DNA of 32,000 nt from Candidatus Electronema halotolerans (GCA_942493095.1 OW818675.1:420001-452000), one strand, 5' to 3'; shown: positions 3,078 to 22,557, counted from the stretch's first letter. Made by a program: numbers and translations. Notes: generated by a model not told the origin, from the letters alone.

Positions 3078-4442
3078 TCACTGTCCGCCGCGCACCAACA
3101 GAACCGCGACGTCGTAGTCGCGGTTGACGACGTCGGAATAGCCGCTGCCGAAATAGACGCACCACGCATAGTCCGAGCTGACCGCATAGGGCGAACCGGA
3201 CCAGTACCACAATGAAGTATTCGGAAAAGCCTGCTGATTGATCGTTGGCTCTTCCGAATCATCGTTGCACCAGCCGTCATCTTTGTCTTTCACCCCTTTA
3301 CTGCAATAGACCAAGGTTTTCAGCTCATCAATGGTCGGCAGCCGCCAATCTGTATAACCAGCATATTCAACATGTTTAAAACGGCTTACGGCATCATCCC
3401 ATTTGCACTCTTCCGCCTTTCCCACTTCACAATTCACCCCTTCCAATCCTTCTGAGCAGCGTTTCCACATCAGGCCAGTCTTCGTATCAATTATAGTTCC
3501 ATCGCAATGATCAATATATTGACCAATCTTTATTCCTTTTGAGCAAGCTATTTTCCACAATCGTTCTTTTTCTCGTGCAGCGATGCCATCCAATTTTTTT
3601 CGCAATCCTTCTGGCAACTTTGACAAGTTATCATAATCAGAGCCGCTGTCATATTGCAGTTTCTTGATGCTTTTCAAAGAAAACATATCACCGTAATCAT
3701 CCGCCAAACGCACCGAGCCATTGCCTTGCAAATCCCAAATTTTCAGCGCATTCATGTCTATGTATGGAATTTCCGTCAGCTCATTGTTGCTCAAATCAAG
3801 TAATTGCAAATTCCGCACCGGCAGCCCTGTTCTGGGAAATGTGCTGATGCCGTTGGCGGATAAATTCAACTCCTCCAAACCGGCCAGCTTGTTCAGCTCC
3901 AATGCGCTGACCTCGTTGTTAATCCGGTTCTTGCTCAAATCAAGAATCTTCAATGACCATAACGGAGCTAAGGAACCGAAATTCTTGGCCGCGCCCTGCG
4001 TCCCGCTCAAATAGAGTTCGCCTAAATCGCTCAATTTCTGCCAAACCGGGGCAAGATTTTGCTCCGCCGTGTCGCCTTGAAAAAGCGGGTTGTCGGAAAG
4101 ATTGAGCACATCCAGCTTGGGCATGGCCTGCAAGGTTTCCAGCAAATCGCTGTCCGCATCCAAATGATTTTTCGACAAATCCAAGCGGCGCAGGTTGGTG
4201 AAGCGTTTCAGCCACGGCGGGATTCTGTACAACGAGGCATCGGAAAAATCAAGCAGCTCCACCCGGAGCAATTCGCGGGGCGCGGTCTCGGCAGGCAGCA
4301 CCTGCGCAGTTCTTTGGCCGGAAAACTGCACCTTGACACCTGCATCGTGCATGATGCGCACGTCATCAATTGTGAATAATTCCTGCCCGACAGACAAGGA
4401 CGGCAGCAGGCATAAGCACAAGGAGAATATGATTTTTTTCAT
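3078..4442 (-). CDS. Secreted leucine-rich-repeat protein with C-terminal DUF1566 (Lcl C-terminal-like) domain
   Basis: Signal peptide [20 protein letters not shown]. Repeated LxxLxLSxNxL units. C-terminus [33 protein letters not shown] matches the DUF1566 pattern. Confidence 0.75.
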
Positions 4443-4489
4443 AGCATTCAAAAAAATGTTTCGGCAGGGCACGGCGCGCCGTGCAACAT

Positions 4490-7470: not shown

Positions 7471-7488
7471 GGAGCAGCTTGCCGCCGG

Positions 7489-8529
7489 TCAGCTCTTCCG
7501 CTTCTCCCCAGTCAGGGCCGCCTGATCAAACCAGTTTGGAATCACGCCCGCTTTCCAGCAGGCCCGCGAGCTGGCAATCACTTTTCGCATCACGCCATTG
7601 ATGACCGCCCACAGTGCTTCGCTGCCGCCGAAATTGACCCCGCCATTGGTCCACAGCGTTTCCAGCATCAGCAGGAGCTGAAAAAAGTTCTGCTGGAGCG
7701 GCCCCTGCACTGGATGCAGAGGATCATCAACTCCACTATGCACTTCCGGCAATTCGCTCATCTTGAGTTTGAGAAAACGGCCAAAATGGGCATAGCCGTT
7801 GTATGGCTCAGGATCTTTCGGCTCGTGCATCAGCCGGTAATAAGGCGGCACTGGAAAACTTTTTTCCGTCCACGGCGGCGACTTGAGCATCTCGGTGAGG
7901 ATATGGCCCTCGCCTTGATTGGTCACAGCTTGGACCGCATTGCGGGCATCAGCATAGCTGGCAATGATCTGGGGGAAATTCTGCTCCGGCCAATGCGCCT
8001 GCTGATGCTGGGTGCTCCAGCGGAACTGCTCAGTGCCGACCTGCTTGATGCCCACCATCAGGCCGTCATACATCTCGCCGATGGAACTGTACGGATGCTG
8101 CGGCGTTCGATGATCCACGATCAGCCCTTCCGGGATTTCCTCCGGGTTTTCAATGTCCAGCATGGTGTTGAGCCGCTCGTCATCCAACGGCCCCAGCATG
8201 GCGTTGAGAAAGCCGCGCTCGCCGGTTTCCGGGTCATAAGGCTTGATGTAGGGCACATCCGCGCCATACTGCGGCGGCCTGAAGCCGGGCGGCGCATCCA
8301 AGGCGGCGCAGAGATTGGCGGCTAACTGTAGGTGCAGCATCTCCTCAATCACCACGCTGCGGATGATTGTGCAGGCCTCGCTCCTGCTGTCAATGACCGA
8401 GGTCATTGCCGTGATGTAGAGGGGCAGGGTGTATAATTCCACGGCGGCAGCGGCTTGGGCGTGCTCCTGCACAAGCGCCTTGGTCCAAACAGCGGCTGGT
8501 TCCGGTATCTCGGTCATGGCGGTTTGCAT
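7489..8529 (-). CDS. Ferritin-like domain protein (PF12902-type)
   Basis: VELYTLPLYITAM...VIEEMLHLQLAANLCAAL matches the ferritin-like family signature. Start taken at MQTAMTEI (ATG 8527-8529); ATG at 8517 is an alternative. Confidence 0.65.
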   Translation of the reverse strand: MQTAMTEIPEPAAVWTKALVQEHAQAAAAVELYTLPLYITAMTSVIDSRSEACTIIRSVVIEEMLHLQLAANLCAALDAPPGFRPPQYGADVPYIKPYDPETGERGFLNAMLGPLDDERLNTMLDIENPEEIPEGLIVDHRTPQHPYSSIGEMYDGLMVGIKQVGTEQFRWSTQHQQAHWPEQNFPQIIASYADARNAVQAVTNQGEGHILTEMLKSPPWTEKSFPVPPYYRLMHEPKDPEPYNGYAHFGRFLKLKMSELPEVHSGVDDPLHPVQGPLQQNFFQLLLMLETLWTNGGVNFGGSEALWAVINGVMRKVIASSRACWKAGVIPNWFDQAALTGEKRKS

Positions 8530-8778
8530 GGTTGAGGAAGAGATGATTGACGTTCCAGCGCGGAACGCTGCGGGGCAGTATATTTTTTTGCCAAGCAAAG
8601 GTCAAGTGAAAGTCTTTGAATATTGAACCGTTGCCCAAAACCTCTCCAGCAGCGGCCTTGCCATCCATCACGTTTCTTGACAGAGCTTGAACGCCAGAGT
8701 AAACGAATTGAAAAATCAATTCGTTTCTTCAAAATAAGGTGAAAATGGGCCGGACAAGGGGAGGTTTCCCAAAATGGC

Positions 8779-8808
8779 TTGACAACTGCCTGATTTTTCT
8801 GGTACGAA
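8779..8808 (+). promoter_or_regulatory. Leader-A sigma70-like promoter (TTGACA-18 nt-TACGAA), copy 1
   Basis: About 95 nt (8722-8818) are near-identical to the leader of array 2 (10944-11038). The -10 element ends 10 nt before the solo repeat. Confidence 0.5.
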
Positions 8809-8818
8809 AAGAGGAAGA

Positions 8819-8853
8819 GTCACAATGACACTCCGGGGCACCTTGGGTTAGAC
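8819..8853 (+). CRISPR. Solo degenerate CRISPR repeat (35 nt)
   Basis: GTCACAATGACACTCCGGGGCACCTTGGGTTAGAC versus the consensus: 2 substitutions and a 1-nt deletion. No second repeat follows. Confidence 0.8.
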
Positions 8854-8868
8854 CGCAGGCCGGAATCC

Positions 8869-8896
8869 GTAGGGGGAATTCATGAATTCCCCCTGC
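8869..8896. repeat. REP-like palindrome GTAGGGGGAATTCATGAATTCCCCCTGC
   Basis: Near-perfect 28-nt palindrome 15 nt after the solo repeat. The flank ggccggaatcc resembles the flank of the copy at 20003. Confidence 0.8.
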
Positions 8897-8931
8897 AATG
8901 TTTGGATATTTCATAAAAATGGCTTTCCGCC

Positions 8932-9768
8932 ATGAACATCCTCCCCTGCTTCCAGCCGCTGCTTGACCTCTCGTGGCAAACCTTGCGTATTGAGCTGCGC
9001 AACACCCGCAACATCTTTGCCCGCCAGCACCCGTTAGCCGTGTTCGCTGCGGTGTGCAAGGAGGCGGCCAGCAAGGCAGGTATTCCGCACCACGAGTATT
9101 TTTATCATCCCTTGTCCGGCCTGCTGGAAAGCCGCATCCGCAAAGATGCTGTCTATCCGCTGGAACTGGTTTTCTCCAGCAACGACAGCACAGTCCGCGA
9201 CCGCTTCCTCAGCGGCCTGACCGAGCACCTGCGTCATCCCCGCAGCAACTTTGCCCTGCATCAGGCAGAGCCATCCATCCGCCGCTGCCTTGCTGATCTG
9301 CTGGCGGAAAATCCCCTGCGCTGCCCGGACGAAGTCTGCTTGGATTTCATCACCCCGTTTCCGTTCACGCCAAAAGCACCGGGGCAGCTCTGCCTGATCG
9401 ACCGCGACCTCTTTTTCCGCAAGCTGGCAGCCCGCATTGAGCGGACGTTCGGCCTGCGGCTGCCGGGCATCGAAAGCACGTGGGCGGAAGTGCGCTTGCT
9501 CTGCTGCTATTGGAAATACTATGAACGTCAGCGGGATTCGGCCAGCAACAGGGGCAGGCTGTATCTGAACGGCACGGTCGGGCCGCTCTATCTGCGCGGC
9601 GAGATTGCGCCGGTCTATCCGCTCCTCCTGCTCTGCTCCGAGATCAGTAACGGAAGGCACAGTGCCTTTGGCTTAGGACATTACCTGCTGCGGCAGGAAC
9701 CCAGCCTGAAAAACCTCCGGCAAAATGGCCGTGAAAGAGGGGCTGGAAGGGGAGGTGCTACAAAATAG
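8932..9768 (+). CDS. cas6: CRISPR-associated endoribonuclease Cas6 (RAMP)
   Basis: 278 aa adjacent to the arrays. C-terminal glycine-rich loop SNGRHSAFGLGHYLL is typical of Cas6. Called from context plus this motif only. Confidence 0.7.
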   Translation: MNILPCFQPLLDLSWQTLRIELRNTRNIFARQHPLAVFAAVCKEAASKAGIPHHEYFYHPLSGLLESRIRKDAVYPLELVFSSNDSTVRDRFLSGLTEHLRHPRSNFALHQAEPSIRRCLADLLAENPLRCPDEVCLDFITPFPFTPKAPGQLCLIDRDLFFRKLAARIERTFGLRLPGIESTWAEVRLLCCYWKYYERQRDSASNRGRLYLNGTVGPLYLRGEIAPVYPLLLLCSEISNGRHSAFGLGHYLLRQEPSLKNLRQNGRERGAGRGGATK

Positions 9769-9770
9769 TA

Positions 9771-9800
9771 TTGACAGGAAGCTGAATTTACGGGTATAAA
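9771..9800 (+). promoter_or_regulatory. Leader-B sigma70-like promoter (TTGACA-18 nt-TATAAA)
   Basis: Near-consensus hexamers. The -10 element ends 10 nt upstream of repeat 1. The same roughly 51-nt leader recurs inverted at 20837-20887. Confidence 0.6.
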
Positions 9801-9810
9801 AAGAGGCAGA

Positions 9811-10119
9811 GTCACAATGACACTCCGGGGCGCCCTGGGTTATGACATACTATATGTGGCAAAGCCACTTTATAAGTCACAATGACACTCCGGGGTGCCC
9901 TGGGTTATGACTGTTATCTTCGGCAATTGATCCTGCAACTGAAAGTCACAATGACACTCCGGGGCGCCCTGGGTTATGACCAGATGCCCCATATAGCAGC
10001 CTTGTTTTTGTGTCACAATGACACTCCGGGGTGCCCTGGGTTATGACAATTGCATCACCAGAAAAACTACGTAGATTTGTAAAGTCACAATGACACTCCG
10101 GGGCGCCCTGGGTTATGAC
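9811..10119 (+). CRISPR. CRISPR array 1: 5 repeats, 4 spacers (29, 33, 31, 36 nt)
   Basis: Repeats at 9811, 9876, 9945, 10012 and 10084, all 36 nt: GTCACAATGACACTCCGGGGYGCCCTGGGTTATGAC. The Y polymorphism lies in the predicted hairpin loop. Confidence 0.95.
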
Positions 10120-10151: not shown

Positions 10152-10167
10152 GTCACGCCACAATGAC
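10152..10167 (+). repeat. Truncated sixth repeat remnant GTCACGCCACAATGAC
   Basis: Lies 32 nt (one spacer length) after repeat 5 and matches the repeat 5' end GTCACAATGAC with a short insertion. Contains the ATG of the downstream antitoxin ORF. Confidence 0.45.
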
Positions 10168-10381
10168 TGTTGCGCAGTTATACAAGCGATATATCCAGCC
10201 GATATCAGCCGCTGATCAACTTGAGCTGATCGCCTTGATCAGCAGACAATTGATCAACCGGCCTGAACGGCAGCAGCGGAGCCTGCTGGAGTTGGAAGGA
10301 CTTGGGGCCGAAATATGGGAAGGTGTTGACCCGCAGCAATATGTTGATGCGCTGCGGAATGAATGGGAAAACCGCCTGTGA
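10163..10381 (+). CDS. VapB-type antitoxin (small, acidic C-terminus)
   Basis: 72 aa. LELEGLGAEIWEGVDPQQYVDALRNEWE is a pattern common in antitoxins paired with PIN toxins. Overlaps the downstream PIN gene. Confidence 0.6.
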   Translation: MTVAQLYKRYIQPISAADQLELIALISRQLINRPERQQRSLLELEGLGAEIWEGVDPQQYVDALRNEWENRL

Positions 10382-10824
10382 CAAGTCCTGAGTCTGCTTT
10401 CACAAAGATAACAGTGCTGGGAATTGACACGGCTCCGTTTATTTATTTTGTCGAACGGCATCCAGTTTATCTGCCGGTCATCCGGGATATTTTCAGGCGG
10501 ATTGATCAAGGATTCATGCGGGGCTGCGCTTCGGTGATCACGCTGACTGAAGTGCTTGTTCAGCCCAAGCGTTGCGGAAAAATCGCCTTGGAACGAGAAT
10601 ACCGCGATCTCCTGCTGTGCAGCAGAAATTTTGAACTTATCCCGATAGATGCGGCAATTGCCGAGCAGGCGGCGGAACTGCGGAGCCGCCATAACCTGCG
10701 AACGCCTGACGCGCTTCAGATTGCGGCCAGCCTTTCCGGTGGTTGCGAAGCATTTCTGACCAATGACAAGCAGCTCAAGCGCGTTGAGGACTTGGCAGTG
10801 CTGGTGCTGGATGATTTTGTATAA
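10363..10824 (+). CDS. PIN-domain VapC toxin
   Basis: GIDTAPFIYFVE (N-terminal Asp), TLTEVLV, and RTPDALQIAASL..AFLTNDKQL acidic-residue pattern of PIN domains. The start is ATG 10363 or GTG 10378 (GTGA overlap with the antitoxin stop). Confidence 0.7.
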   Translation: MGKPPVTSPESAFTKITVLGIDTAPFIYFVERHPVYLPVIRDIFRRIDQGFMRGCASVITLTEVLVQPKRCGKIALEREYRDLLLCSRNFELIPIDAAIAEQAAELRSRHNLRTPDALQIAASLSGGCEAFLTNDKQLKRVEDLAVLVLDDFV

Positions 10825-10998
10825 CAGACATGGACGAATGATGTCGGCTGCTTAAAAAATATATTATTTCGGACAGGTGCGAGTTATTGAATTATCATGC
10901 TGAATCTGCGTCGTTATTCGACAAAACCAACACAATGTAGTACCTTCGGCAAAATGAGGTGAAAATGGGTCAAACAAGGGGAGGTTTCCAAAAAACGC

Positions 10999-11028
10999 TT
11001 GACAACTATCTGGATTTACTGGTACGAA
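10999..11028 (+). promoter_or_regulatory. Leader-A sigma70-like promoter (TTGACA-18 nt-TACGAA), copy 2
   Basis: Same geometry as 8779-8808. The -10 element ends 10 nt before repeat 1 of array 2. Confidence 0.5.
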
Positions 11029-11038
11029 AAAAGGAAGA

Positions 11039-11212
11039 GTCACAATGACACTCCGGGGTGCCCTGGGTTATGACAATATATGATCACCTATCACATTACC
11101 GTGAGAGTCACAATGACACTCCGGGGTGCCCTGGGTTATGACTTGAGGTTTGCTGACAGTGAAACATTCATGTCTTGTCACAATGACACTCCGGGGTGCC
11201 CTGGGTTATGAC
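11039..11212 (+). CRISPR. CRISPR array 2: 3 repeats, 2 spacers (32, 34 nt)
   Basis: Repeats at 11039, 11107 and 11177, all the T variant of the consensus. Confidence 0.95.
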
Positions 11213-11214
11213 CG

Positions 11215-11242
11215 GTAGGGGCAAAAAATTTTTTGCCCCTAC
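11215..11242. repeat. REP-like perfect palindrome GTAGGGGCAAAAAATTTTTTGCCCCTAC
   Basis: Starts 2 nt after the last repeat of array 2. Confidence 0.85.
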
Positions 11243-11264
11243 GATTTTTCCGCGAAAAAAATTC

Positions 11265-11293
11265 TTGCAAAATCTGCATCATGTCGTTATATA
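11265..11293 (+). promoter_or_regulatory. Candidate promoter of the effector operon (TTGCAA-17 nt-TATATA)
   Basis: The -10 element ends 6 nt before the cmr1-like ATG (11300), so the mRNA would be leaderless or nearly so. No Shine-Dalgarno sequence is visible. Confidence 0.4.
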
Positions 11294-11299
11294 TCGGAC

Positions 11300-12328
11300 A
11301 TGACTCAGCTCCCCTACAGCATCTCTTCACGCACTCCCATCGTCACTGGTGACAACGACCACCGAAACACTGAACTGCAAGCCGCCGGACTGCTCGGCAG
11401 CCTGCGCTATCAATACTGGCTGCTCAAGGCCATGCAGGCGTGGGAGAAAAATCCGCAGCATCCTGTTTATCCGCCGTATTCCGCTGATCTTTCACCCGCA
11501 GGCAGCAAAAATTTCACAGAGGAACTGCGTAAGGCCGGGCCAGTCGTGCAGCTTTTTGGTGCCACGAACTGGAAAAAGATGTTCCGGCTGGAGATTGCCG
11601 AAGCGGTGCAAAGAGAGCAGCAGTCCTGCTCGGCCCGCGCAAATGACCGCATTGCTCCGTGGCAGTGGACGTTCAAACTCATTTTCCGCCACGACAGAAA
11701 CAGCCCGATTTTTAACAAGCTGGCGGACAAGGAAGGCTTCAGCTTGGCAGATGAGCTGCACAGCCTGATGGCTTTTGTGCATCAGTATGGCTGGCTGGGC
11801 GCGGCCCCGCAGAACGGGCTGGGCTGGGTAAAAGTGCAGAGCGAGGAACTTGGAACGGTCATCCTGCCGCAAGAAAATCCGGTCTTTGCGGCAAAGGATA
11901 TTCTGTTGAATAGAAAAGAATCAAAAAGACTGCAAGATACGCTGCGCGACTATTACCGCGACAAGTACAGCAATTTGGCCGCCCCGCATTGGAAACGGGG
12001 ACGATATCTGCACAGCTTAGAGCATCTGGACAAACAGTCTCCGCCAATCGGCTACGAAATCCGCCGCTGGCTGCGGGATCAGATGTTTCCGCCTGACCGA
12101 TATAAAAACAAGCAGGAGGAATATTTCGGCAACCAGAAACATGCCGGTTTTGTTCATGTCACGCATCCCGTTGTTCAGTCGGACGGCGGCTGGTTGCTCA
12201 GATTACGCTTTGCGGCCCGCCCGGATACGACTGGCGACACAACGCGGCTGTATCCCGATCATCTCGATATTGCGCCGCAGTTCTGGCTTGATTACTGCGA
12301 AAAACTTCTGAAAGCGAAAGATGACTAA
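11300..12328 (+). CDS. cmr1: Type III RAMP protein, Cmr1-like (Cas7 group)
   Basis: TPIVTGDND..AGLLGSLRYQYW, LFGATNWKKMFRLEI, and the G-rich loop GWLGAAPQNGLGWV. A second RAMP half has YFGNQKHAGFVHV. First gene in the III-C gene order. Confidence 0.6.
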   Translation: MTQLPYSISSRTPIVTGDNDHRNTELQAAGLLGSLRYQYWLLKAMQAWEKNPQHPVYPPYSADLSPAGSKNFTEELRKAGPVVQLFGATNWKKMFRLEIAEAVQREQQSCSARANDRIAPWQWTFKLIFRHDRNSPIFNKLADKEGFSLADELHSLMAFVHQYGWLGAAPQNGLGWVKVQSEELGTVILPQENPVFAAKDILLNRKESKRLQDTLRDYYRDKYSNLAAPHWKRGRYLHSLEHLDKQSPPIGYEIRRWLRDQMFPPDRYKNKQEEYFGNQKHAGFVHVTHPVVQSDGGWLLRLRFAARPDTTGDTTRLYPDHLDIAPQFWLDYCEKLLKAKDD

Positions 12329-13076
12329 ATTTCAGGCCGCTGCCCAAGACAAGCACCTTTGGCAGCCCGATTACGCCAGCCTGCCGCACAATCTGCCCAG
12401 CCTCCCTGACCCGGAAATCTCCGGCTGCTCCTTCCGCTTCTTCTGCACCTTCACCCTGCAAACTTGCTTCTTCTCAGGCCGCGACCGAGCGGGCGCAGAA
12501 AAAGAGGCTGGCAACGAGCATGATCACACGTTGAACAACCATCTCTGCCGGGACTGGGTTTCTGGTCATCCATTAGCCAAGGCCGGGGCGTGGAAGCGGC
12601 TTTTCCGTTCCTGCTGGCCGAAAGATAATGCCAAAGATATCGAACGTCTTTTCGGGCCGGAACCAAAACATCCCAACGAAGAGGAAAAACTGAGCAAGGC
12701 TGAGTTGAAATTTCATCACGCCGTTTTTCCTCTGAACAGCACCGGCAAAGCTCTGATTGCGCCGCGAGACCAGAAAACCGGCACGGTCAATCACGGCCCG
12801 ATCACCTATGAAGTGGTGAAGGCAGGCAGCCGCTGCGAGGTAGTGATTGATTATCTGCCGCGCCGCGCTTGCAATCCGGCAGCGGCGGAAAAGGTGCTCT
12901 GGAAGCTGTGGCGGGCCGCCTTGGAAGTTAAAACTCAAGGCGCGGCCATTGGCGGCAAGTCCGGCATTTGGGGGCGTGGCCGGTTTTATCTGACTGAAAT
13001 GTCTGTAATGCGCAGCCCTGACATGCCGCGCAGCAAGTCCAACGAGTCAATCAAAGACCGGAGTGCGGCCCGATGA
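12321..13076 (+). CDS. cmr6: Type III RAMP protein, Cmr6-like (Cas7 group)
   Basis: FTLQTCFFSG..GHPLAKAGAWKRLFRS, RLFG, KFHHAVF, and C-terminal IGGKSGIWGRGRF G-rich loop. 8-nt overlap with the upstream gene and ATGA overlap with cas10. Confidence 0.55.
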   Translation: MTKFQAAAQDKHLWQPDYASLPHNLPSLPDPEISGCSFRFFCTFTLQTCFFSGRDRAGAEKEAGNEHDHTLNNHLCRDWVSGHPLAKAGAWKRLFRSCWPKDNAKDIERLFGPEPKHPNEEEKLSKAELKFHHAVFPLNSTGKALIAPRDQKTGTVNHGPITYEVVKAGSRCEVVIDYLPRRACNPAAAEKVLWKLWRAALEVKTQGAAIGGKSGIWGRGRFYLTEMSVMRSPDMPRSKSNESIKDRSAAR

Positions 13077-13459
13077 GCGAAGCCCAAATCAGCGCGGCCT
13101 TGGAGCAGCACTGCCGCTTCCTCGCTTATGTGCGCGTGAATGCGTTGCTGCATGATGGAGACAAGGTCACGTCAGAGTTTCTGCGCTGGTCGATGGATAA
13201 AAAAAGCGTTCCGAAAGAAGAATATCCCGGACATGAAACATCTTCCCCGGAAGAACGGCTGAATTTTCTGGCAAGCAAGGAAGAGCTGTTCCCACGGCAT
13301 GAGCTGGAGCCAATTGCTGCCCCTGTGCGTCGGGTCGCCTTGGAACCTGACATGCTGCGGAAGGAACAGGCTGCCGACATATTGCAGCAATATATCGGGA
13401 ACGAAAATTTTATCAGCAAGTTGGCATCCTCTCAGCTAAAGAATCTGGAAGATAATTTT
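13073..13459 (+). pseudogene. cas10: cas10 (cmr2-like) 5' segment encoding the HD domain, interrupted by an IS
   Basis: HCRFLAYVRVNALLHDGDK resembles the Cas10 N-terminal H...HD motif. The reading frame runs into the IS end at 13460. Confidence 0.7.
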
Positions 13460-14641
13460 GGCGGTCTCCCTCTTGAGAGTTGTTGAATAATTGTTTATCC
13501 TTCTGTGTGTGTCAACTATTTTAAAGAAGGAGGAAAAGATGGCTAAACTTGCAAAAGTCGGCAGTTTTTGTCCGAACCCCGCCTGTTCTGATTATGAGCA
13601 GCTTGACGGTCGAATTATCAGATATGGCCGCACTCGTGCAGGCGTTCAGCGTTTTAAATGCCTGAGTTGCGGAAGAACGTTCACTGCGACGCGAGGGACG
13701 ATATTTTATCGCCGCCGGACGGAGGATGCTGAAATTGTTGAGTGTCTTGCCCTGCTTGCGGAAGGATCACGGATCAGCAGCGTGAGCCGGGTGAAAGGGC
13801 ACAAGGAAGACACAGTCGCCGCTTGGCTGACGGAAGCAGCCGAGCATGTTGAAGCTGTTGAAAATGTTCTTCTTTCCGAATTCCGCATCAGCCGGGGCCA
13901 GCTTGACGGCTTATGGTCTTATGTGAAGAATAAGGGCGAAAAAAAAGGACATGCGGAAACTGAGGCGAGCGGCCAGTTTTTCCGTTCGACGATGATGGAC
14001 ATGGACAGCCGCCTGCGTGCCGGGCGGGGATTCGGCAAATCGGAGACGGAAGCTTCCGCCGCCGTCTTCCGGCAGCTCAAGGAACGCGGGCATTCCGACG
14101 GCCCGCCGCCGACAGTTTCAGACGGCTGGGGCGGCATCCGGGAGGCGATGCTGGAAATTTTTGGAAAAGTTCCTGAATATTCCGGAAAAGGCAGACCTCC
14201 CTCGAAAAAGCGGCCTCAACCCGGATGGAAATATTTGCAAATCATCAAGCAGCGGGATGAGAAGGGGAATTTTCTCGGCACACGGCGCAAGGCGGTGCAT
14301 GGGAGCATGAGAGAACTTGATAAAATCTTTGGAAAAAGCACGGCCTATATTGAACGCAGCCATCTGACCATGCGGACTTTCAGCAGCCGCCTGACGCGGA
14401 AAGGCATCGCCTTCTCAAAGAGCATTGACATGCATAAAGCCGCCGCCGCACTGGAGGATATGTATTACAACTTCATCAAACCGCTGAAAACTTTGAGGCT
14501 GAATGCTGACGAAAACTCCGGGCTGAAATGGCTGCCGCGCACACCGGCAATGGCTGCGGGCTTGACGGACCATATTTGGACGCTGAAAGAGGTCTTCAGC
14601 ATGGTCGTGATTGAAAAACAACACTCAACAGGGTGACGACC
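13460..14641 (+). mobile_element. IS1-family insertion sequence (1182 bp)
   Basis: Imperfect terminal inverted repeats, 20/26 matches (GGCGGTCTCCCTCTTGAGAGTTGTTG versus the reverse complement GGTCGTCACCCTGTTGAGTGTTGTTT). Flanked by a perfect 8-bp direct repeat ATAATTTT at 13452-13459 and 14642-14649. Confidence 0.85.
13539..14636 (+). CDS. IS1-family DDE transposase (single ORF with N-terminal zinc finger)
   Basis: GGAGG RBS 7 nt upstream. CPNPAC..CLSCG zinc finger. LDGLWSYV, SDGWGGI and ERSHLTMRTFSSRLTRKGIAFSK match the IS1 DDE and C-terminal pattern. The stop lies inside the right IR. Confidence 0.75.
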   Translation: MAKLAKVGSFCPNPACSDYEQLDGRIIRYGRTRAGVQRFKCLSCGRTFTATRGTIFYRRRTEDAEIVECLALLAEGSRISSVSRVKGHKEDTVAAWLTEAAEHVEAVENVLLSEFRISRGQLDGLWSYVKNKGEKKGHAETEASGQFFRSTMMDMDSRLRAGRGFGKSETEASAAVFRQLKERGHSDGPPPTVSDGWGGIREAMLEIFGKVPEYSGKGRPPSKKRPQPGWKYLQIIKQRDEKGNFLGTRRKAVHGSMRELDKIFGKSTAYIERSHLTMRTFSSRLTRKGIAFSKSIDMHKAAAALEDMYYNFIKPLKTLRLNADENSGLKWLPRTPAMAAGLTDHIWTLKEVFSMVVIEKQHSTG

Positions 14642-14649
14642 ATAATTTT

Positions 14650-17295
14650 CAGCTCGACAAAAAAGGCCAACAGAAACGTAATTTTTTTGATCAGGACTAC
14701 ACGTCGATTTTTACAGAAGGGCTGTTCAGCAAGCTGACTGGTCAGCCTGTCCCAGCAGGTGTGGACTGGCTCTGTGAATTTCATCCCGGCACCTCTTTGT
14801 ATGATTTTTACGCTTGGCATCACCGGCCTACTTTTCACTTAAAAACGAAGAGTCATGTAGCAACATCCCTGCTTTTTTTCTCTGCCGGAACCGGAGGCAT
14901 TGATGGCAACGACACTGGTTATGAAACCGAAATGGAGGCTGGCCGTGAAAAATATTCCGGGCATCACACTCCTGACACTGCGCAGGACAATATTGTTCTG
15001 ATCAGTACGCCGTTTGGTTTCGAGCGGCCTGTTGATCTTGGCTGTGCTGAGACAGCTTGTCATTTGACAGAAGAAATACAAAATGTTGTTGCAGCTCTGC
15101 GGCAAAACAGCCAGCCCATGCAGGCGGCGGCAGAGCTTGAAAGAAAACTTGAGCAGCCTTTTCGCAACACGGTCATCCGCACCAAAAGACCGATCAATGA
15201 CATAACCCTTGCTGATCATTCCATTTCAACTGCTGCCTTGACAGTTGCCCAAGCAGCAAGGGCAGTGCTTGAAAACATCGCGGCCCCGGATGACACCGCT
15301 TACTGTCTGCCAGTCAGAAGACCGTGCAAAGATAGACCCAGCCAGCAAACTTGCTTTGCCGCCTTCAGTTGCGCAGTCAATGCGGACAAGCTCGACCAGA
15401 TGGCTTTGGAACTCAAAGACATCACCGCCATTCGGGACGAGGTGAACAAGCTGCTCAATTATTTTATCCTCTTGTTTTCTGAGGAATATCCGGTTGGCGG
15501 GAAGGTGTATCAAGATCAGCACGGCGCGCATGTCGTGGTGCCGGTGCTGGGTAATCCAGCCAAACGCTGGATTAAAGGCGGCGCAGACAAGCTGATCAGG
15601 CTTGAGGAGCAGACGCAGCAGCCTGAATGGGCGGACGCGCCGCTGGATGCCCTGACCGATGAGCAGTTTGTCGATTGGCTCTTTGCCACGGCAGAAAGAG
15701 AGTTACAGAAATTTCCGGTTTACTTTGGTGCGGAACTGCTGATCGGTCTGCGTTACAATCCGATTATGCAGCAATTGAACAGGCTGGCCCATGCGATTGA
15801 CTGGAGCCGGGAAATTTCTTGGTTCAGCAGGGCTGCCGGTCGTGCTCTGCGCAAAGGAGAAGGCGGGGGCTGCATTCGATTTTTCAACTATTTGGAAAGA
15901 GAAGTCACGCTCGACAAAAAAGATCAAGCAGAACCTGTTCCAGATTTGTGCGGAGTCTGCGGTCTGCGCATGGGCACTGACCGCAAGCACCGGAAATGCG
16001 ACATCTGCTTCAAACGGACTGATGATCATCGGGTGCTGCTGGAAGAAACCGGCGATATTGAAAAACTGGAACAGGCTTCCGGCGACAACCGGATGGTGCT
16101 GTTAAGCGTTTCTTTCAACCTTGCCGACTGGTTGGCAGAGAAATCCAATTCCGGGATTTTCTGTCACACGGCAAACAAGGCGAATAAGCTGAAGGAGCAG
16201 AAAACTGTCGAGCATCAACGCTTCAACAGCTTTGGCCGTTTCCGGCGTATTTGGCGGAGCACCGAGATTTTTCTGAATGAATTATGCGGCCAGATTCAGG
16301 AAATCAGCGGGCCGGGCGACGAAGACCGTTTCCTGATGCGCACTATCCTGCTTGCCCCGCAGGATTTGCAGATCATCCTGCCTGCGGCCAAAGCCCGCCA
16401 AGCTCTGGATGCGGTGTACGAAAAATTCAGCACGGAATTCGGCAGAGTCAGCGACCGGATGCCCTTTCATGTCTCCCTGTGCATCTTCCCGTTTCGAGTG
16501 CCGATCTACTTGGTGCTGGAAGCGGCCAGACGGCTGCGGCAGAGCTGCCTGAAAATTAAGCCAAAGCAGGTCTGGTTGCACAGAGCTGATCCAGAAGATG
16601 AGCATAGCAATCTGCTGCGCACGGACAGCCGCGCAGACTGCGACGACCGGGAGCGCAGCTTCACCTATTGCCTGCCCATGATCTGGACGCAGAACTATCA
16701 GCCGCCCAACATGCTGAACGGCAAGGATCAGTTTCACGCCAATATCCAAGTGAAGCAGGAAGAAGACGGTAACACGTCCTGGCAGTGGAAATTTGTCGGC
16801 GAGATAGGGCAGGGCGAAAAAAAAGGTGCAAAAGAGACCGTCCTGATGACCGACAACCGCTTGGCCATTGTCGAAATCAGCTCTGGTTTCAGCTTGGATG
16901 AACTGGCCCGGCCTTCGGAAGAGCTGGAGCCGAGCCGCTGCCACGACATCCCGCTCGGCTATTGGCCCTGCATCAAGGAGCTGATCAAGCTGGAATCGCG
17001 CCTGTCTGAAAAGCAGCAGCGCGGGCTGCGTTCCGTCTTGGCCATGCGGGAAAAACTCTGGCAGGAAAGCGACCTGCCCGGCGCAACAGCGGAGGAAAAG
17101 CAGAACTTTCTCCGGCAGAGCATCCGCCTGCTCTGGCAGGAACCTTCCCGCTTCGGGCCGACAAAATGGGGGAATTTGCATGATCACCAAAGAAATCTGC
17201 TGGAGGAAAGCTGTCTGAACGGGGCTGTCTTTCTCGCCTCAGCAGTGAAAAAACATTTGCAGCACAACGACGACAAGGAGCAGGATCATGGCTGA
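14650..17295 (+). pseudogene. cas10: cas10 (cmr2-like) 3' segment: D1/zinc finger/Palm2/D4
   Basis: RPINDITLADHSISTAAL (Cmr2-type), CGVCG-x13-CDIC treble clef, Palm-like strands RMVLLSVSFNLADWL and TILLAPQDLQIILP. In frame with 13073-13459 once the IS and one TSD copy are removed. Confidence 0.75.
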
Positions 17296-18295
17296 AGACC
17301 GGCGGATGCTCAAACTGTTCACCCTTGATCCGCTCCACATCGGCGTGGGCCAAGACATCATGGGCGAGGTTGACCTGCCTGTTGACCGGGAGAGTGAAAC
17401 CGGGGTGCCGCGCATTCCCGGCACGGCCCTGAAAGGCGGCTTCCGCGCTCATGCGGCATGGAAGCTGAAAATGGACGGCAAAAAGGACAAACCCTGTCCC
17501 GGTGATCAGCCGGAAGACGGCAAAACTGCGGCAGAGCGAACCCGTTCTGATTACTGCCCAATTGAATCTTGCCCGATCTGCCAGACCTTCGGTTTTCCAT
17601 CGCTGAACATTCAGGAAAAGCAGATTGCCGGACACGAGGGCCGGGTCTATTTCCGTGATGCCCGGCTGGCCTTTTTTCCAGCTCTGACCGACAAGGGCAC
17701 GCTCTGGTTTTCCACGCCGGGCCGGGCCGCAGCGTGGCTGGAGCTGAAAGGCTATGAACATCCTGAATTGCTTATGGCGGACGGCGACTTGGCCCTGTCA
17801 GTCAATCAGAAAGAGCCAATTCAGGATTTGCGGGTCGGCTGGATTGCTGTTTCCGGGATTGAGCAAAACAGCACGGAAGCGCAGGTGCAGCAGGTTGTTG
17901 AGGCTCTGCGGAACTCCACGCTGCAATTCCCGACTAAGAAATACTGGCAGCATATTGTCAGCAAAACCGTGCTGCTGGATGAAAAGCATTTTTACCGCTT
18001 GGTGGAAACCTGCTTGGAGCGGCGCACCTGCAACCGGGTGGATCAGGACACCGGCACTGTGGCGCAGGGCGCACTGTTCAGCTACGAAGCTCTGCCCCGC
18101 GCCAGTCTGCTGTGCAGCCGGATTTTTGCCGAGACATCGTTGCCCGGCACGATTGAGGGCGGCTATGATTCGCCGCTGGCGGTCTGCAAGCTGGCCAAGG
18201 AAGGCTTTGCCCGCATGGGCATTGGCGGGATGCAGACCAGAGGCTTAGGTTCGCTGCTGATTGAGCTGTCAAGCAGGGAGGTCGGCAATGGCTGA
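17288..18295 (+). CDS. cmr4: Cmr4-like Cas7 backbone RAMP
   Basis: LHIGVGQDIMGEVDLPVDRESETGVPRIPGTALKGGFR, CPICQTFG, RVYFRDA, TGTVAQGALFSYEALP, GIGGMQTRGLG. Confidence 0.8.
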   Translation: MAEDRRMLKLFTLDPLHIGVGQDIMGEVDLPVDRESETGVPRIPGTALKGGFRAHAAWKLKMDGKKDKPCPGDQPEDGKTAAERTRSDYCPIESCPICQTFGFPSLNIQEKQIAGHEGRVYFRDARLAFFPALTDKGTLWFSTPGRAAAWLELKGYEHPELLMADGDLALSVNQKEPIQDLRVGWIAVSGIEQNSTEAQVQQVVEALRNSTLQFPTKKYWQHIVSKTVLLDEKHFYRLVETCLERRTCNRVDQDTGTVAQGALFSYEALPRASLLCSRIFAETSLPGTIEGGYDSPLAVCKLAKEGFARMGIGGMQTRGLGSLLIELSSREVGNG

Positions 18296-18848
18296 ATTTG
18301 CGTATCAGGAACCGGCCCGGATGAAGTTGGGGCGGGAAATATATGACCGCTATTGCAGAGAAAACAAGCAGGGCAATGCCGTCTCTCTGCTCAGTGATGC
18401 CATGACCGTGCTGCGTCAGCTTGGCCCGGCAGGGCTGGATGTCTGGATTGACCTTGATGCAGCCAAACGCGGCTTTCTCCGTCATGCGTGGCAGGAGAAC
18501 GCGCCTGATGAAATGGCCGCCTCGCTCAAAGCGCGGCAAGAGGATGCGGACACGGCTTGGGCGGAGATTGAAGACCTGATGCAGGTGCTGCGCTGCGCCA
18601 AGTATTTACTCAGTGATGCCATGACTGTGCTGCGTCAGCTTGGCCCGGCAGGACTGGATGTCTGGATTGACCTGAAAGGAAAAGACGGTGAACGACAGTT
18701 CATCCGCAACGGGTTGGATGCGAAACTGTCCGACTCGCTCAAGTCACGGCAGCAGGACATGGACACAGCTTGGGCGAAGATTGAAAACCTGATGCAGGTG
18801 CTGCGCTGCGCCAAATATTACGCCAAGACCCAGGAAAAAGATGAGTGA
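18288..18848 (+). CDS. cmr5: Cmr5-like small subunit (Cas11) with internal tandem duplication
   Basis: Position between cmr4 and cmr3 and all-helical composition. The segment LLSDAMTVLRQLGPAGLDVWIDL...AW..IE.LMQVLRCAKY occurs twice (18387-18605 and 18606-18818). Start ATG at 18288 (ATGGCTGA overlap). Confidence 0.6.
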   Translation: MAEFAYQEPARMKLGREIYDRYCRENKQGNAVSLLSDAMTVLRQLGPAGLDVWIDLDAAKRGFLRHAWQENAPDEMAASLKARQEDADTAWAEIEDLMQVLRCAKYLLSDAMTVLRQLGPAGLDVWIDLKGKDGERQFIRNGLDAKLSDSLKSRQQDMDTAWAKIENLMQVLRCAKYYAKTQEKDE

Positions 18849-19683
18849 GCACTGGCAGCAAGTCAGCTTCCGGCTTTCCGGCAGCCTTTTTGTCGGCTCC
18901 GGCAAATGGGGCTTTGTCCTGCCCTGCCGACCCTACTTGCCGGGCTGGACGCTCTGGGGCGCGTTTGTTATCTTGCTGAAGAAAAGCGGACGCTGGTCGG
19001 GCTGTTATGGCGAAATCGGCCAGCGGCTAAATCAGAAATGCTGGCTTGGCCATCTTTTCTTGCAGCAGGAGGACGGCAGCCTGTATTTGCCTGCAATTGA
19101 TCCCAAGCAGGGCGGCAAAACTGTTTTTGACTGGCGCGACCGCAATAACCAAGTTGCTGCCGGGCTGCCGCCCACGCTCTTCCGGCACGGCACGGTGCGC
19201 AGCCGTGAGCAGGGCCAGGAGAGCTTGCACAGACTTTTTCTCACTGAGACTGTGCAGCCCCGGAAGTATCGGTTGACCGGCATTCTCCGCTGCGACAGCC
19301 CGCCGGATGAGCTGCTGCATCCGGGCGACGCGCTCCGGGTCGGCGGCAATCGGCAGGTGAGCGGGGCCGAGATTGTCTGCGAGACCGTGGCAAGCTGCTC
19401 TGAAGAAATGCGGCGGAAATTCCTCAGCTACCAGCACCTGCGCTGCAATCCGGCGGACAATGCCTCTGCCCTGAACGGCGAGCTGGAACGGATTGTCCTG
19501 CGCCGCACCCGGACTGAAAACGGTTCGCGTGCAGACAGCAATGGCCGTTCTGGTTTTGGCCAGCATCACGTTGACTGGGGCCTGCATCTTGCGCCGGGCT
19601 GGGATGGGCCGGAAGGACAGGCGTATCAGCCTGCCAAGGATAAGCAAAACAGTTTCCGGCATGGCACGGTGGAGAAGGTCTGA
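18841..19683 (+). CDS. cmr3: Cmr3-like Cas5-group RAMP
   Basis: YLPGWTLWGAF and LRVGGNRQVSGAE resemble Cmr3 motifs. Last gene in the III-C gene order. 8-nt overlap with cmr5. Confidence 0.5.
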   Translation: MSEHWQQVSFRLSGSLFVGSGKWGFVLPCRPYLPGWTLWGAFVILLKKSGRWSGCYGEIGQRLNQKCWLGHLFLQQEDGSLYLPAIDPKQGGKTVFDWRDRNNQVAAGLPPTLFRHGTVRSREQGQESLHRLFLTETVQPRKYRLTGILRCDSPPDELLHPGDALRVGGNRQVSGAEIVCETVASCSEEMRRKFLSYQHLRCNPADNASALNGELERIVLRRTRTENGSRADSNGRSGFGQHHVDWGLHLAPGWDGPEGQAYQPAKDKQNSFRHGTVEKV

Positions 19684-19880: not shown

Positions 19881-19987
19881 GTCACAATGACACTCCGGGG
19901 TGCCCTGGGTTGCGACAATTATATTTCCATTATCATCATATTCATATTGCCGTCACAATGACACTCCGGGGCGCCCTGGGTTATGAC
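19881..19987 (+). CRISPR. CRISPR array 3: 2 repeats, 1 spacer (35 nt)
   Basis: Repeats at 19881 (3' end GTTGCGAC variant) and 19952 (consensus). Confidence 0.9.
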
Positions 19988-20002
19988 GGCAGCCGGAAAT
20001 CC

Positions 20003-20030
20003 GTAGGGGCGATTCATGAATCGCCCCTAC
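20003..20030. repeat. REP-like perfect palindrome GTAGGGGCGATTCATGAATCGCCCCTAC
   Basis: 15 nt after the last repeat of array 3. The flanks are homologous to 8854-8925. Confidence 0.85.
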
Positions 20031-20176: not shown

Positions 20177-20190
20177 CTCTCCTTCCCGCC

Positions 20191-20290
20191 ACATCCTTCC
20201 CTGTTTCCAGCCTCTGCTGGACCTCTCGTAGCAGACTCTGCACCTTGAGCTGCGCAAACATCCGCAACACCTTTTCCCGTCAGCATCGTC
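20191..20290 (+). pseudogene. cas6: 5' fragment of a second cas6 copy
   Basis: acatccttccctgtttccagcctctgctggacctctcgtagcag aligns to cas6 8938-8985. The ATG is lost and TGG has become TAG at 20229-20231. Similarity ends near 20290. Confidence 0.65.
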
Positions 20291-20524
20291 CCCGACAGGC
20301 GCAACAGATGGCTGACAATCGCGGCCTTGAAAAAGAAAAACCGAAAATTTCTGAAGAGACATGAAATCTTGTCAATGATCTCACAGGCAAGGACTGGAGT
20401 CTTGAACAAGTAAGCGGCGGGCTGGCGGATGAAAAAAATTGCAGATATGTCATGAGCGCATTGCATCAGCAACATTGCCCGCGACAAGAAATAGGGAGGA
20501 GAACTACATTTACGCCATCATGCG

Positions 20525-20836
20525 GTCATAATAACCCAGGGCGCCCCGGAGTGTCATTGTGACCTTCTAATAATCCAGCTGAAGATTTGGTAAAAAGTCA
20601 TAACCCAGGGCGCCCCGGAGTGTCATTGTGACTATCATGACACGCACAGGAATGTTGTTCGCAGTATGTCATAACCCAGGGCACCCCGGAGTGTCATTGT
20701 GACAGAGATGTCTATCCAGAGCTTCGATTGTTTGTCATAACCCAGGGCGCCCCGGAGTGTCATTGTGACCTTGTAAAAGCCCGGAAGACAAAAAAGTTTT
20801 GTCATAACCCAGGGCGCCCCGGAGTGTCATTGTGAC
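20525..20836 (-). CRISPR. CRISPR array 4 (inverted): 5 repeats, 4 spacers (33, 35, 30, 31 nt)
   Basis: Reverse-complement repeats at 20525 (distal, with a 3-nt ATA insertion), 20597, 20668, 20734 and 20801. The leader-proximal end is on the right. Confidence 0.95.
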
Positions 20837-20846
20837 TCTGCCTCTT

Positions 20847-20876
20847 TTTATACCCGTAAATTCAGCTTCCTGTCAA
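20847..20876 (-). promoter_or_regulatory. Leader-B promoter, inverted copy (TTGACA-18 nt-TATAAA)
   Basis: Reverse complement of 20837-20887 matches 9760-9810 except for one base seen. Confidence 0.6.
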
Positions 20877-21090
20877 TACCATTTTGTAGTTGAACGCAGG
20901 GCTGCTGTCCGGCGAGGGCGTATTCCCCAAAAGCACAAATGCAAAAACAAGCGTTTTTATCTCGCAATAGATTGAAAATGATGCTATTTTCCTCTGACGG
21001 CAGATGCGCCGCCGTTGAATTGTTTGGATAAAAAGACAACATATTAAACAGGATACAGATTTCGTGTCCTGTCGGCAAGGAGAAAACAGC

Positions 21091-22557
21091 ATGGCCCAGA
21101 AAAAAAATAATTCCTTCAGTCTGACTTTGTTCGATATTTACAGGAAAGACCCGGACGGGCCGCTGCCGGAGCCGCCGACTTTTCTCTGGACAGACAGGGA
21201 CGGCGCAAGCTGGCAGATTCCCTTTCTTGAGCCGGATGAAACAGGCGGCAAGGCTGTGCAAAGCGCGCTGCACCGCCTGTACTGCCTTGCCGGACAGGTT
21301 TTCAAGGAAGATCAGGTTTTCAGAACTGCGCCGCAGAAGCTGCTGAACGAGCTGAACACAACATGGCAGGTCGGCCCTGATCTGCTGCCGGTCTGCTTTC
21401 CCCGCGCAGGCGGCTTCTGCTTGGAAAAGGAATACCTGCTCCTGTATCTGGAAGTGCAGCCAGTCATGCCGGAAATCAATGCGGAATGCCTGTCCCGGCT
21501 GGCGGTCATGCTGACCAACAAGCTCTGCTATCGGGAAAAACAGGTCGCAACACTTCAAAGAGAATTCAAAGCGCATCAGGAAGGCAGTCCGGGCCGCAGC
21601 GAACAGGAGATTGTCCAAGCCCATTTTCAGGGCAATGATGCCAAGCTGATCAAGGGCATCACCGGTGAAGCGATCACGGTCAGGGAAATCTTTGCCGACT
21701 TGGCCGGGCCGGGCTGGGAATCCATGCTTCTTGACCGCTTCCTCCTCAAATCCCTGCTCATCACCCCATCAGAAGATGCGGCCCCTTCATACAGCCGTGC
21801 TGATGAGGAAAACCTGCTGCGGCTGACCAGAGGCATGAATGAGAACTATCTGCCCGCGTCGCTGGAGGCTTTGGCCGGGCATGTCGTGCCAGTGCAGACC
21901 TTTGCCAATGTCCGCTTCTTCGCTGCCAACGAAGGGATTGCCGCGCATGTCAAGCCAGGGCCGGGGCCGGGACAGGATTTTCTTTGCACAGAGTTTTCCA
22001 GCCGAACGCATTCCGAATACATGCTCCTCTTTGTGCTGGCCGTGTATCAGCATTACCGGCTGATTGATCTGATCCGGGAGCTGGCTCGCTGCACAGCAGA
22101 CCTGAACGAGCATAGTTTGGACAGCCGCCGGATTGAACAGCTCCGCCAGCTTCGGCAGAAATTGGCTGTTCATGAGGTGAAATACATCAACACCCAGCCC
22201 GCCTTTCTGACCAATTATCAGCAATATTACAGCGGCCTGCGCCAAGGGCTGAATACCGGCGCACTGGCGGAAAAGCTGCGCCGCTCTGTGGCTGAATTAG
22301 ACGCGCTCTTGGCTGCCGAAGAAATGCGCCGGGCCGAGGAGGACCTTCGGGACCGGAAAGAGCAGAAAGAACGGGATGAAAAGGGCAAAATGCTCATGGC
22401 TGTCACCGCAGAGGCAGTGGCTCTGCCTTATTATCTGCACAGTCTGTTGGCCCATGCTCTGCATTTCAACAATTATGTGGCATTGGCCATAACAGGCATT
22501 GTCACCGTCGGCGTGGTGACAAAAACTGTGCTCACCATGCGCGGCAAAAAGTCCTGA
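21091..22557 (+). CDS. Hypothetical protein, 488 aa, coiled-coil plus C-terminal TM hairpin
   Basis: AAGGAG RBS 8 nt before the ATG at 21091. No family recognised by eye. Charged helix AEEMRRAEEDLRDRKEQKERDEKGK is followed by two hydrophobic segments and a basic tail (MRGKKS). Confidence 0.6.
   Translation: MAQKKNNSFSLTLFDIYRKDPDGPLPEPPTFLWTDRDGASWQIPFLEPDETGGKAVQSALHRLYCLAGQVFKEDQVFRTAPQKLLNELNTTWQVGPDLLPVCFPRAGGFCLEKEYLLLYLEVQPVMPEINAECLSRLAVMLTNKLCYREKQVATLQREFKAHQEGSPGRSEQEIVQAHFQGNDAKLIKGITGEAITVREIFADLAGPGWESMLLDRFLLKSLLITPSEDAAPSYSRADEENLLRLTRGMNENYLPASLEALAGHVVPVQTFANVRFFAANEGIAAHVKPGPGPGQDFLCTEFSSRTHSEYMLLFVLAVYQHYRLIDLIRELARCTADLNEHSLDSRRIEQLRQLRQKLAVHEVKYINTQPAFLTNYQQYYSGLRQGLNTGALAEKLRRSVAELDALLAAEEMRRAEEDLRDRKEQKERDEKGKMLMAVTAEAVALPYYLHSLLAHALHFNNYVALAITGIVTVGVVTKTVLTMRGKKS

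Follow-up and report, generated by a model that had tools for sequence, protein, structure and literature searches.

A subtype III-C CRISPR-Cas operon from a cable bacterium with an apparently cyclase-dead Cas10 and an insertion sequence in cas10

Introduction

Subtype III-C of the type III CRISPR-Cas systems (Cas10c/Csx11; the "MTH326-like" Cmr variant) is placed by the 2025 classification among the subtypes in which Cas10's polymerase/cyclase domain is inactivated (PMC12669027). Hoikkala et al. (2024) reported that III-C loci have no cyclase sites and that the HD domain is kept in half of them, suggested that immunity may be given without cyclic oligoadenylate (cOA), and stated that these loci lack known effectors (PMC11229360). 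Here, we describe the III-C interference operon at positions 11300-19683 of a window of 32,000 nucleotides (nt), the whole stretch of DNA analyzed, from the cable bacterium Candidatus Electronema halotolerans (GCA_942493095.1 OW818675.1:420001-452000). The operon resembles described III-C systems in its gene order, its Csx11-family Cas10, its replaced GGDD motif, its kept HD motif and the lack of a CARF or SAVED effector in the locus. It differs from them in that it represents a divergent branch, whose relatives are linked to a fusion of Cas6, reverse transcriptase (RT) and Cas1 and to a CorA-like gene, and in that an insertion sequence (IS) breaks cas10, cmr5 contains an internal duplication and the genes for adaptation are gone. 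An initial annotation of this DNA had singled out the combination of a dead cyclase with a kept HD motif; the description was correct, but the combination is the published norm for III-C (PMC12669027; PMC11229360), is not peculiar to this operon and is not a discovery.

Three other known systems offer points of comparison. The III-B Cmr complexes of P. furiosus, A. fulgidus and T. thermophilus share with this operon homologs of Cmr1, Cmr3, Cmr4 and Cmr6, the catalytic Asp of Cmr4, and a Cas10 fold in which HD and two Palm domains are combined with a zinc finger and a helical domain at the C terminus (by Foldseek comparison), but their Cmr2 has GGDD and makes cOA or S-adenosylmethionine-AMP (SAM-AMP), whereas here we read APQD, and Asn in place of the first-strand Asp. 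The III-B signaling systems that use CorA and SAM-AMP (Bacteroides fragilis type) likewise have a CRISPR-type CorA-like gene beside a type III locus; in contrast to them, the Cas10 described here lacks a SAM-AMP-making active site, a scan of the window's open reading frames (ORFs) turned up no gene for NrN, DEDD or SAM lyase, and the match of the window's CorA-like protein to CorA profiles is weak when it is scored alone. Finally, in another known case the cyclase site and the cOA-sensing effectors have both been lost, which was read as reductive evolution to signal-independent interference; the operon described here differs in gene content and in Cas10 lineage, and has a full set of Cmr-type subunits.

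Results and discussion

Gene order and profile matches assign the operon to subtype III-C

Six co-directional, overlapping ORFs, joined by 8-nt or ATGA overlaps, occupy positions 11300-19683 in the order cmr1, cmr6, cas10c/csx11, cmr4, a cmr5-sized gene and cmr3, with the third ORF interrupted. This order reportedly defines subtype III-C in the 2015 classification. Using the CRISPR models of PADLOC, which carry subtype labels, together with Pfam and NCBIfam profiles, we obtained a profile assignment for five of the six genes (lengths in amino acids, aa):

11300-12328, + strand: cmr1-like RAMP gene (Cas7 group), 342 aa; PADLOC Cmr1 (III-B/III-C) 1.6e-8, TIGR01894 4.2e-6 (slightly under its cut-off), Pfam RAMPs 7.5e-7
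12321-13076, + strand: cmr6-like RAMP gene, 251 aa; PADLOC Cmr6 (III-B/III-C) 8e-14
13073-13459, + strand: 5' part of cas10c/csx11, residues 1-129, with LLHDGDK at 13145-13165
14650-17295, + strand: 3' part of cas10c/csx11, residues 130-1010; PADLOC Cas10c CAS-III-C 1.8e-48, TIGR02682 1.8e-34
17288-18295, + strand: cmr4 (Cas7 backbone), 335 aa, with candidate catalytic Asp D29 at 17372-17374; TIGR02580 5.8e-30, PADLOC Cmr4 3.4e-37
18288-18848, + strand: cmr5-sized small-subunit gene, 186 aa, assigned by position and size only
18841-19683, + strand: cmr3-like gene (Cas5 group), 280 aa; PADLOC Cmr3 (III-B/III-C) 7.7e-16

The PADLOC E-values for Cas10c (1.8e-48), Cmr4 (3.4e-37), Cmr3 (7.7e-16), Cmr6 (8e-14) and Cmr1 (1.6e-8) put these similarities beyond chance. 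Both the subtype and the layout of overlapping co-directional genes had been proposed in the initial annotation; the ORF coordinates agree with that layout, and the gene order, the PADLOC CAS-III-C match of Cas10c and the Csx11 match to TIGR02682 bear out the subtype. Thus, judged from its genes, this is a typical Cmr-like interference operon of subtype III-C.

Cmr4 scored 105 bits against TIGR02580 (NCBIfam), over the cut-off of 87. The loop VDLPVDRE, for which a candidate catalytic Asp had been claimed, spans residues 28-35 (17369-17392), and when its extended form GEVDLPVDRE is aligned to solved Cmr4 chains, which read GNVDLPIQRE and GVVDQPIQRE, D29 falls on their Asp (GxVDxPIQRE), in agreement with that claim. 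In Cmr and Csm complexes of solved structure, this Asp is the one that cleaves the target RNA.

The fifth gene showed no similarity in Pfam, NCBIfam, PADLOC or PDB sequences. It carries an in-frame tandem duplication of ~73 codons (18390-18608 and 18609-18827), the copies being 97% identical at the start and 84% at the end, with a diverged middle. The orthologs in two related loci, L001 of Ca. Electrothrix aestuarii (117 aa) and L003 (113 aa), are without the duplicated block, and the relatives overall measure 113-129 aa, compared to 186 aa here.

Close relatives of the operon are few. We found only ~16 close Cas10 protein clusters among 5.8 billion sequences, the named ones being from Electrothrix or unclassified Deltaproteobacteria; in terms of genera, the close clusters belong to Electrothrix, Electronema or Desulfobulbus. 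A word-indexed protein search with the Cas10 alignment yielded only one additional sequence, and a scan of 185,579 species-representative genomes with the close-clade alignment only three loci. The operon order is the same in ten related loci (for example L001, L003, L009, L010, L012 and L014); related loci have the same or a similar repeat, and most have cas2 and the Cas6-RT-Cas1 fusion. This small cable-bacterial clade, which includes intact orthologs, would be usable for III-C biochemistry.

Cas10 has lost the cyclase motifs and keeps the HD motif

All of the Cas10 motifs quoted in the initial annotation were found in place. Numbered on the protein reconstructed without the IS, LLHDGDK comprises residues 25-31 (13145-13165), the first Palm strand (...SFNL), LLSVSFNLADWL, residues 613-624 (16099-16134), and APQD residues 698-701 (16354-16365).

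A profile of 15 sequences from the close clade gave no match to PDB sequences even at E<=1. An exhaustive hidden Markov model search returned 901 Cas10c relatives, and a family profile (A3) built from 150 of these sequences matched the Cmr2 chains of P. furiosus (E=8.5e-5). In this alignment the A3 consensus 'IlasPqtfmalvPA' pairs with IYAGGDDVLAILPV of P. furiosus Cmr2 (I-Y-A-G-G-D-D-V-L-A-I-L-P-V), and A698-P699-Q700-D701 falls on GGDD, confirming the alignment proposed by eye. Gly-Gly occurs in the GGDD column in none of the 150 family members. Pro699 is kept in 147 of them, and the two "Asp" columns are variable: Asp701 is present in 15/150 members of this wider family, and the Cas10c of the distant locus L011 reads PQN. 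At the end of the preceding strand, half of the family members have F-D-L, whereas this protein has F-N-L, with N619 at the position of the first-strand metal-binding Asp, as expected from the claim that this Asp had been lost.

We also examined the predicted structure. A first AlphaFold2 model, made from a shallow alignment, had a mean predicted local distance difference test score (pLDDT) of 52.8 and was discarded; the model made from a 75-sequence alignment had a pLDDT of 89.8 and a predicted TM score of 0.91. It places a strand at residues 610-618 and a hairpin at 693-697/701-707, with A-P-Q at the turn, and its top 50 Foldseek matches in the PDB were all Cas10, Csm1 or Cmr2 (best E=2.4e-9). 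GG.D strings elsewhere in Cas10 occur only at residues 211 (HD region) and 439 (a variable loop). Given the A3 alignment, the family columns, the model and the positions of these strings, the check for an intact GGDD or DxD elsewhere in the protein comes out negative. Thus, to judge from sequence and predicted fold, the cyclase site is inactivated, with APQD for GGDD and Asn for the first-strand Asp. The alignment also gives a sequence-to-structure anchor for the III-C Palm2 hairpin, in which A/S/E-P-x-x replaces GGDD.

The N-terminal HD motif had been described as kept, and we found it conserved across the family (H27 in 142/150 members and D28 in 118/150); A3 profile positions 19-67 have a weak match to Cas3 HD domains. 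The zinc finger is likewise present, with C563, C566, C579 and C582 (15949-16008) invariant in the 150-sequence alignment, but its spacing is CxxC-x12-CxxC rather than the x13 first given.

An IS1-family element interrupts cas10 within the HD domain

The two parts of cas10 are separated by a mobile element:

13460-14641, + strand: IS1-family insertion sequence, 1182 bp, with transposase at 13539-14636; matches to Pfam DDE_Tnp_IS1, NF050000 and NF033558, inverted repeats, 8-bp duplication

The element is bounded by imperfect terminal inverted repeats, GGCGGTCTCCCTCTTGAGAGTTGTTG and GGTCGTCACCCTGTTGAGTGTTGTT (the latter reverse-complemented). Outside these, the direct target duplication ATAATTTT, a perfect repeat of 8 bp, lies at 13452-13459 and 14642-14649. 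The transposase scored over the cut-offs of Pfam DDE_Tnp_IS1 (27.9 bits; cut-off 24.1) and of the IS1/IS1595 zinc domain NF050000 (37.2 bits; cut-off 28), and under that of NF033558 (3.2e-15, 56.6 bits; cut-off 100). When the IS and one copy of the duplication are taken out, joining 13073-13459 to 14650-17295, an uninterrupted Cas10 of 1010 aa results, in frame across the junction (...KNLEDNF to QLDKKGQQ...). The insertion lies inside the HD domain, within a segment (~residues 85-175) that half of the closely related proteins do not have, and divides the residues of the HD region into H27/D28/H54 on one side and H186/H187/D214/D217 on the other.

Arrays and adaptation genes around the operon

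The following features surround the operon:

8932-9768, + strand: cas6, 278 aa, the Cas6 domain surviving from a gene that relatives have as a Cas6-RT-Cas1 fusion; Pfam CRISPR_Cas6 7.1e-6, PADLOC Cas6 4.6e-12
9811-10119, + strand: CRISPR mini-array 1, 5 repeats (GTCACAATGACACTCCGGGGYGCCCTGGGTTATGAC) and 4 spacers, with a leader-like repeat at 9717-9810 upstream
10163-10824, + strand: vapB-like gene (10163-10381) and vapC PIN toxin gene (10363-10824), between two mini-arrays; Pfam PIN 4.3e-17
11039-11212, + strand: CRISPR mini-array 2, 3 repeats and 2 spacers, with a terminator-like hairpin at 11215-11242 downstream
19881-19987, + strand: CRISPR mini-array 3, 2 repeats and 1 spacer
20187-20312, + strand: second remnant of cas6 (Cas6-RT-Cas1), from its 5' end, ~50 codons; tblastn 45% identity over 49 aa, E=7e-7, and DNA repeats
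20528-20843, - strand: CRISPR mini-array 4, 5 repeats, in the opposite orientation, with leader-like sequence at ~20844-20990

By tblastn, cas6 is 73% identical to residues 4-254 of the Cas6-RT-Cas1 fusion of L001, and RT, Cas1 and Cas2 were found nowhere in the window. The four mini-arrays are built on one 36-nt repeat, of which solitary degenerate copies are also present, one at ~20154 ahead of the second cas6 remnant; a tandem-repeat finder detected only one of the arrays. A leader-like sequence, of which every array has a copy ahead of it, occurs in direct copies of ~126 nt at 8725-8850, 9717-9842 and 10945-11070. Each of these three stands before a mini-array or a repeat, and array 4 is abutted by the end of the leader in inverted orientation (~20844-20990). 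Similar GC-rich hairpins lie 3' of arrays (about 8866-8900, 11215-11242 and 20000-20030), and a scan of Rfam gave no match. With cas10 interrupted, cas6 reduced to a stump, cas1 and cas2 absent and the arrays fragmented, the locus looks to be in decay, and the system in this genome is very probably out of action.

Related loci show comparable features. In L001, cmr1 was called as two ORFs of 215 and 132 aa (8232-9228), which suggests a frameshift, and the Cas6-RT-Cas1 gene of L004 is without its Cas1 part. Decay seems common among these related loci.

A proposed messenger-free complex and alternatives to it

Taking these results together, we consider it likely, at a probability of roughly 0.75, that the operon encodes a III-C complex with a cyclase-dead, HD-keeping Cas10 and that the locus is now disabled. 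By analogy with III-A and III-B complexes, Cas6 would cut the array transcripts, the complex loaded with CRISPR RNA would bind complementary transcripts, Cmr4 would cut these at 6-nt steps by means of D29, and target binding would turn on the HD nuclease of Cas10 against nearby single-stranded DNA; on the same analogy, neither cOA nor SAM-AMP would be made. What we see now would be a once-working, messenger-free complex that the IS has disabled and whose adaptation genes (RT-Cas1 and Cas2) are gone. The initial annotation had pictured RNA cleavage and the HD nuclease at work: the Cmr4 Asp and the HD motif are indeed present, but a working HD nuclease in this genome is made less credible by the IS in the HD domain and by the loss of RT-Cas1 and Cas2. 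As it stands, this is one more III-C locus, in which profile and structure confirm the statements of the surveys, and its practical value is modest.

Several observations weigh against this reading or parts of it. The match of Cas10 to TIGR02682 (cas_csx11; E=1.8e-34) amounts to 119 bits, far under the equivalog cut-off of 249, which places the protein on a divergent branch among III-C large subunits. The identity of cmr5 is given by position and size alone (orthologs of 113-117 aa in L001 and L003). Palm2 is the best-conserved part of Cas10 in the close clade, with PQD, NSFGRFRRIW and EFGRV invariant, and such conservation is not expected of a truly functionless domain. A CorA-family gene is a conserved neighbor of the locus, and in III-B systems CorA needs a signal made by Cas10. 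The IS may not be fixed in the population, and the split Cas10 may still assemble. Finally, the papers searched contained neither an experimental study of III-C nor biochemical data on a III-C complex, and the RNA-cleavage and HD DNase steps are drawn from analogy only.

The conserved neighbor is the basis of the first alternative:

21091-22557, + strand: candidate ancillary effector, a membrane protein of 488 aa of the CorA-like (CRISPR-associated) type, encoded divergently from array 4

It had been claimed that no CARF, SAVED, Csx1, Can or NucC-like gene lies in the window, and that the system would therefore be independent of signaling. The first statement holds literally, but the window does contain this candidate effector of the CorA family, and the second is weakened by the conservation of the CorA-like neighbor in cable bacteria. 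The protein, which is 100% identical to a Candidatus Electronema halotolerans protein, carries two hydrophobic helices at its C terminus and, ahead of these, a long charged helix. Neither Pfam (including CorA) nor the PDB gave a match for the family. Of the informative loci from cable bacteria, eight of eight (the window, L001, L004, L005, L006, L007, L008 and L017) have the gene beside the CRISPR locus, whereas its other flank varies among RecC, ZnuABC, SelA and an integrase; a scan of metagenomes with the family found four short contigs. The association is a genuine oddity, from one narrow lineage, and one lead worth following.

We considered that the III-C complex of this clade might control the CorA-like effector, either through a messenger made at a site of Cas10c other than GGDD or through direct contact of the target-bound complex with CorA. 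Candidates for such a site are the conserved P-Q-D hairpin and the Arg-rich NSFGRFRRIW helix, Palm2 motifs that are invariant in the clade; in the wider family, however, the Asp701 of this hairpin is not generally kept (15/150, with PQN in L011). Similarity to CRISPR-type CorA profiles is seen in the CorA-like family, with PDLC01043 matched by 10/18 members (best 7.8e-11) and a second profile, PDLC01174, by two at 6e-6, but for the window protein by itself the PADLOC CorA-like match is no better than E=0.0023. The divergent adjacency is kept in eight loci while the far flank differs, but all of these loci are of one narrow lineage, and the adjacency may be inherited synteny. A survey table of Shah et al. 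lists CorA as 'B,(C),D', that is, with a rare '(C)' association (PMC6546367); against this, the scanned ORFs of the window include no NrN, DEDD or SAM-lyase gene, and a second type III system with an active cyclase elsewhere in the genome could use the CorA-like protein. Two unannotated genes lie between cas10c and cmr4 in L011 (12905-16523), the first encoding 491 aa with an N-terminal DHH match and the second 709 aa with several C-terminal transmembrane segments. The pair recalls the CorA-NrN modules of SAM-AMP systems, but the DHH match is under threshold (E=0.0029), and neither protein has a PADLOC or PDB match. Overall, functional coupling of a cable-bacterial III-C complex without GGDD to a CorA-family membrane effector strikes us as possible but rather unlikely. 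Were it true, type III signaling would gain a new mode, with a messenger from an unrecognized site or an ancillary effector activated without a nucleotide signal; the L011 genes for a DHH-like and a membrane protein would be a second instance of such coupling, and a functional CorA link would raise the question of the means by which a Cas10 without cyclase communicates with an effector.

Less likely again, and in our view improbable, is that the IS is tolerated, such that a 137-aa N-terminal fragment of Cas10 and a C-terminal fragment (ORF from 14611, with a restart within the IS end) assemble, and that RNA cleavage by Cmr4 is kept without a working HD nuclease. Both halves of cas10 are open, the downstream genes are intact and overlapping, the catalytic Asp of Cmr4 is intact, and the absence of the segment hit by the IS from half of the close relatives suggests that it is a structurally dispensable insert. 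However, the HD motifs are split between the fragments, the C-terminal fragment has no evident ribosome-binding site, polarity of the 1.2-kb insertion on cmr4-cmr3 is likely, and the remainder of the locus is decaying. That the operon is instead a regular III-B (or III-D) system whose cyclase is active, its motifs misaligned by eye, is highly improbable, although the Cmr-type RAMP genes match generic III-B profiles too: the best Cas10 profiles are III-C-specific, APQD lies on GGDD in the Cmr2 profile alignment, and a shifted GGDD was rejected with GGDD in the aligned column in 0/150 sequences and GG.D only at residues 211 and 439.

The start of the operon and other features of the loci

A putative promoter precedes cmr1, 3' of the strong terminator-like hairpin at 11215-11242:

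11265-11299, + strand: putative promoter, TTGCAA (11265-11270), 17 nt, TATATA (11288-11293), 6 nt, ATG

A TATATA element ending 6 nt before the ATG had been noted, and this spacing is right; as a -10 element it is less secure, since it is without the conserved final T and was not called by a consensus promoter scanner. The block from -35 to ATG is conserved in L004, L005, L007 and L010, where the -10 element is TATCCT, 8 nt from the ATG. We found neither an upstream in-frame start for cmr1 nor a Shine-Dalgarno sequence. Given these absences and the conserved block, a leaderless or nearly leaderless cmr1 mRNA is plausible.

With respect to the arrays, we considered whether the spacers of the mini-arrays might act as self-regulators, and rejected this, there being no meaningful partial match of a spacer to any other part of the window. 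L001 of E. aestuarii has three separate arrays as well. In the largest of them (7118-7790) spacer-repeat units recur: two spacers alternate three times, and another occurs three times.

Toxin-antitoxin pairs (VapBC, ParE/RelB) recur within these III-C loci at sites between arrays and cas genes: at 10163-10824 in the window, 4442-5109 in L005, 2953-3413 in L007, 3738-4962 in L008, 594-1054 in L010 and 394-852 in L017; vapC homologs occupy the same position in L005 and L017.

Beside the RT-Cas1 gene of L003, another Cas10c locus, positions 11131-15424 contain a 101-aa ORF as well as genes for a Lon/ChlI-like protein of 655 aa, a protein of 354 aa and a DarG-like protein with a macrodomain. The 655-aa protein has only weak similarity to Lon and a faint match to DisA-type cyclases, and the 354-aa protein has a faint match to sigma-70 region 2. 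In the window itself, a leucine-rich-repeat protein that has a C-terminal Lcl domain is encoded at 3078-4472 (- strand), in the kilobase of lowest GC content (0.47, compared to about 0.56).

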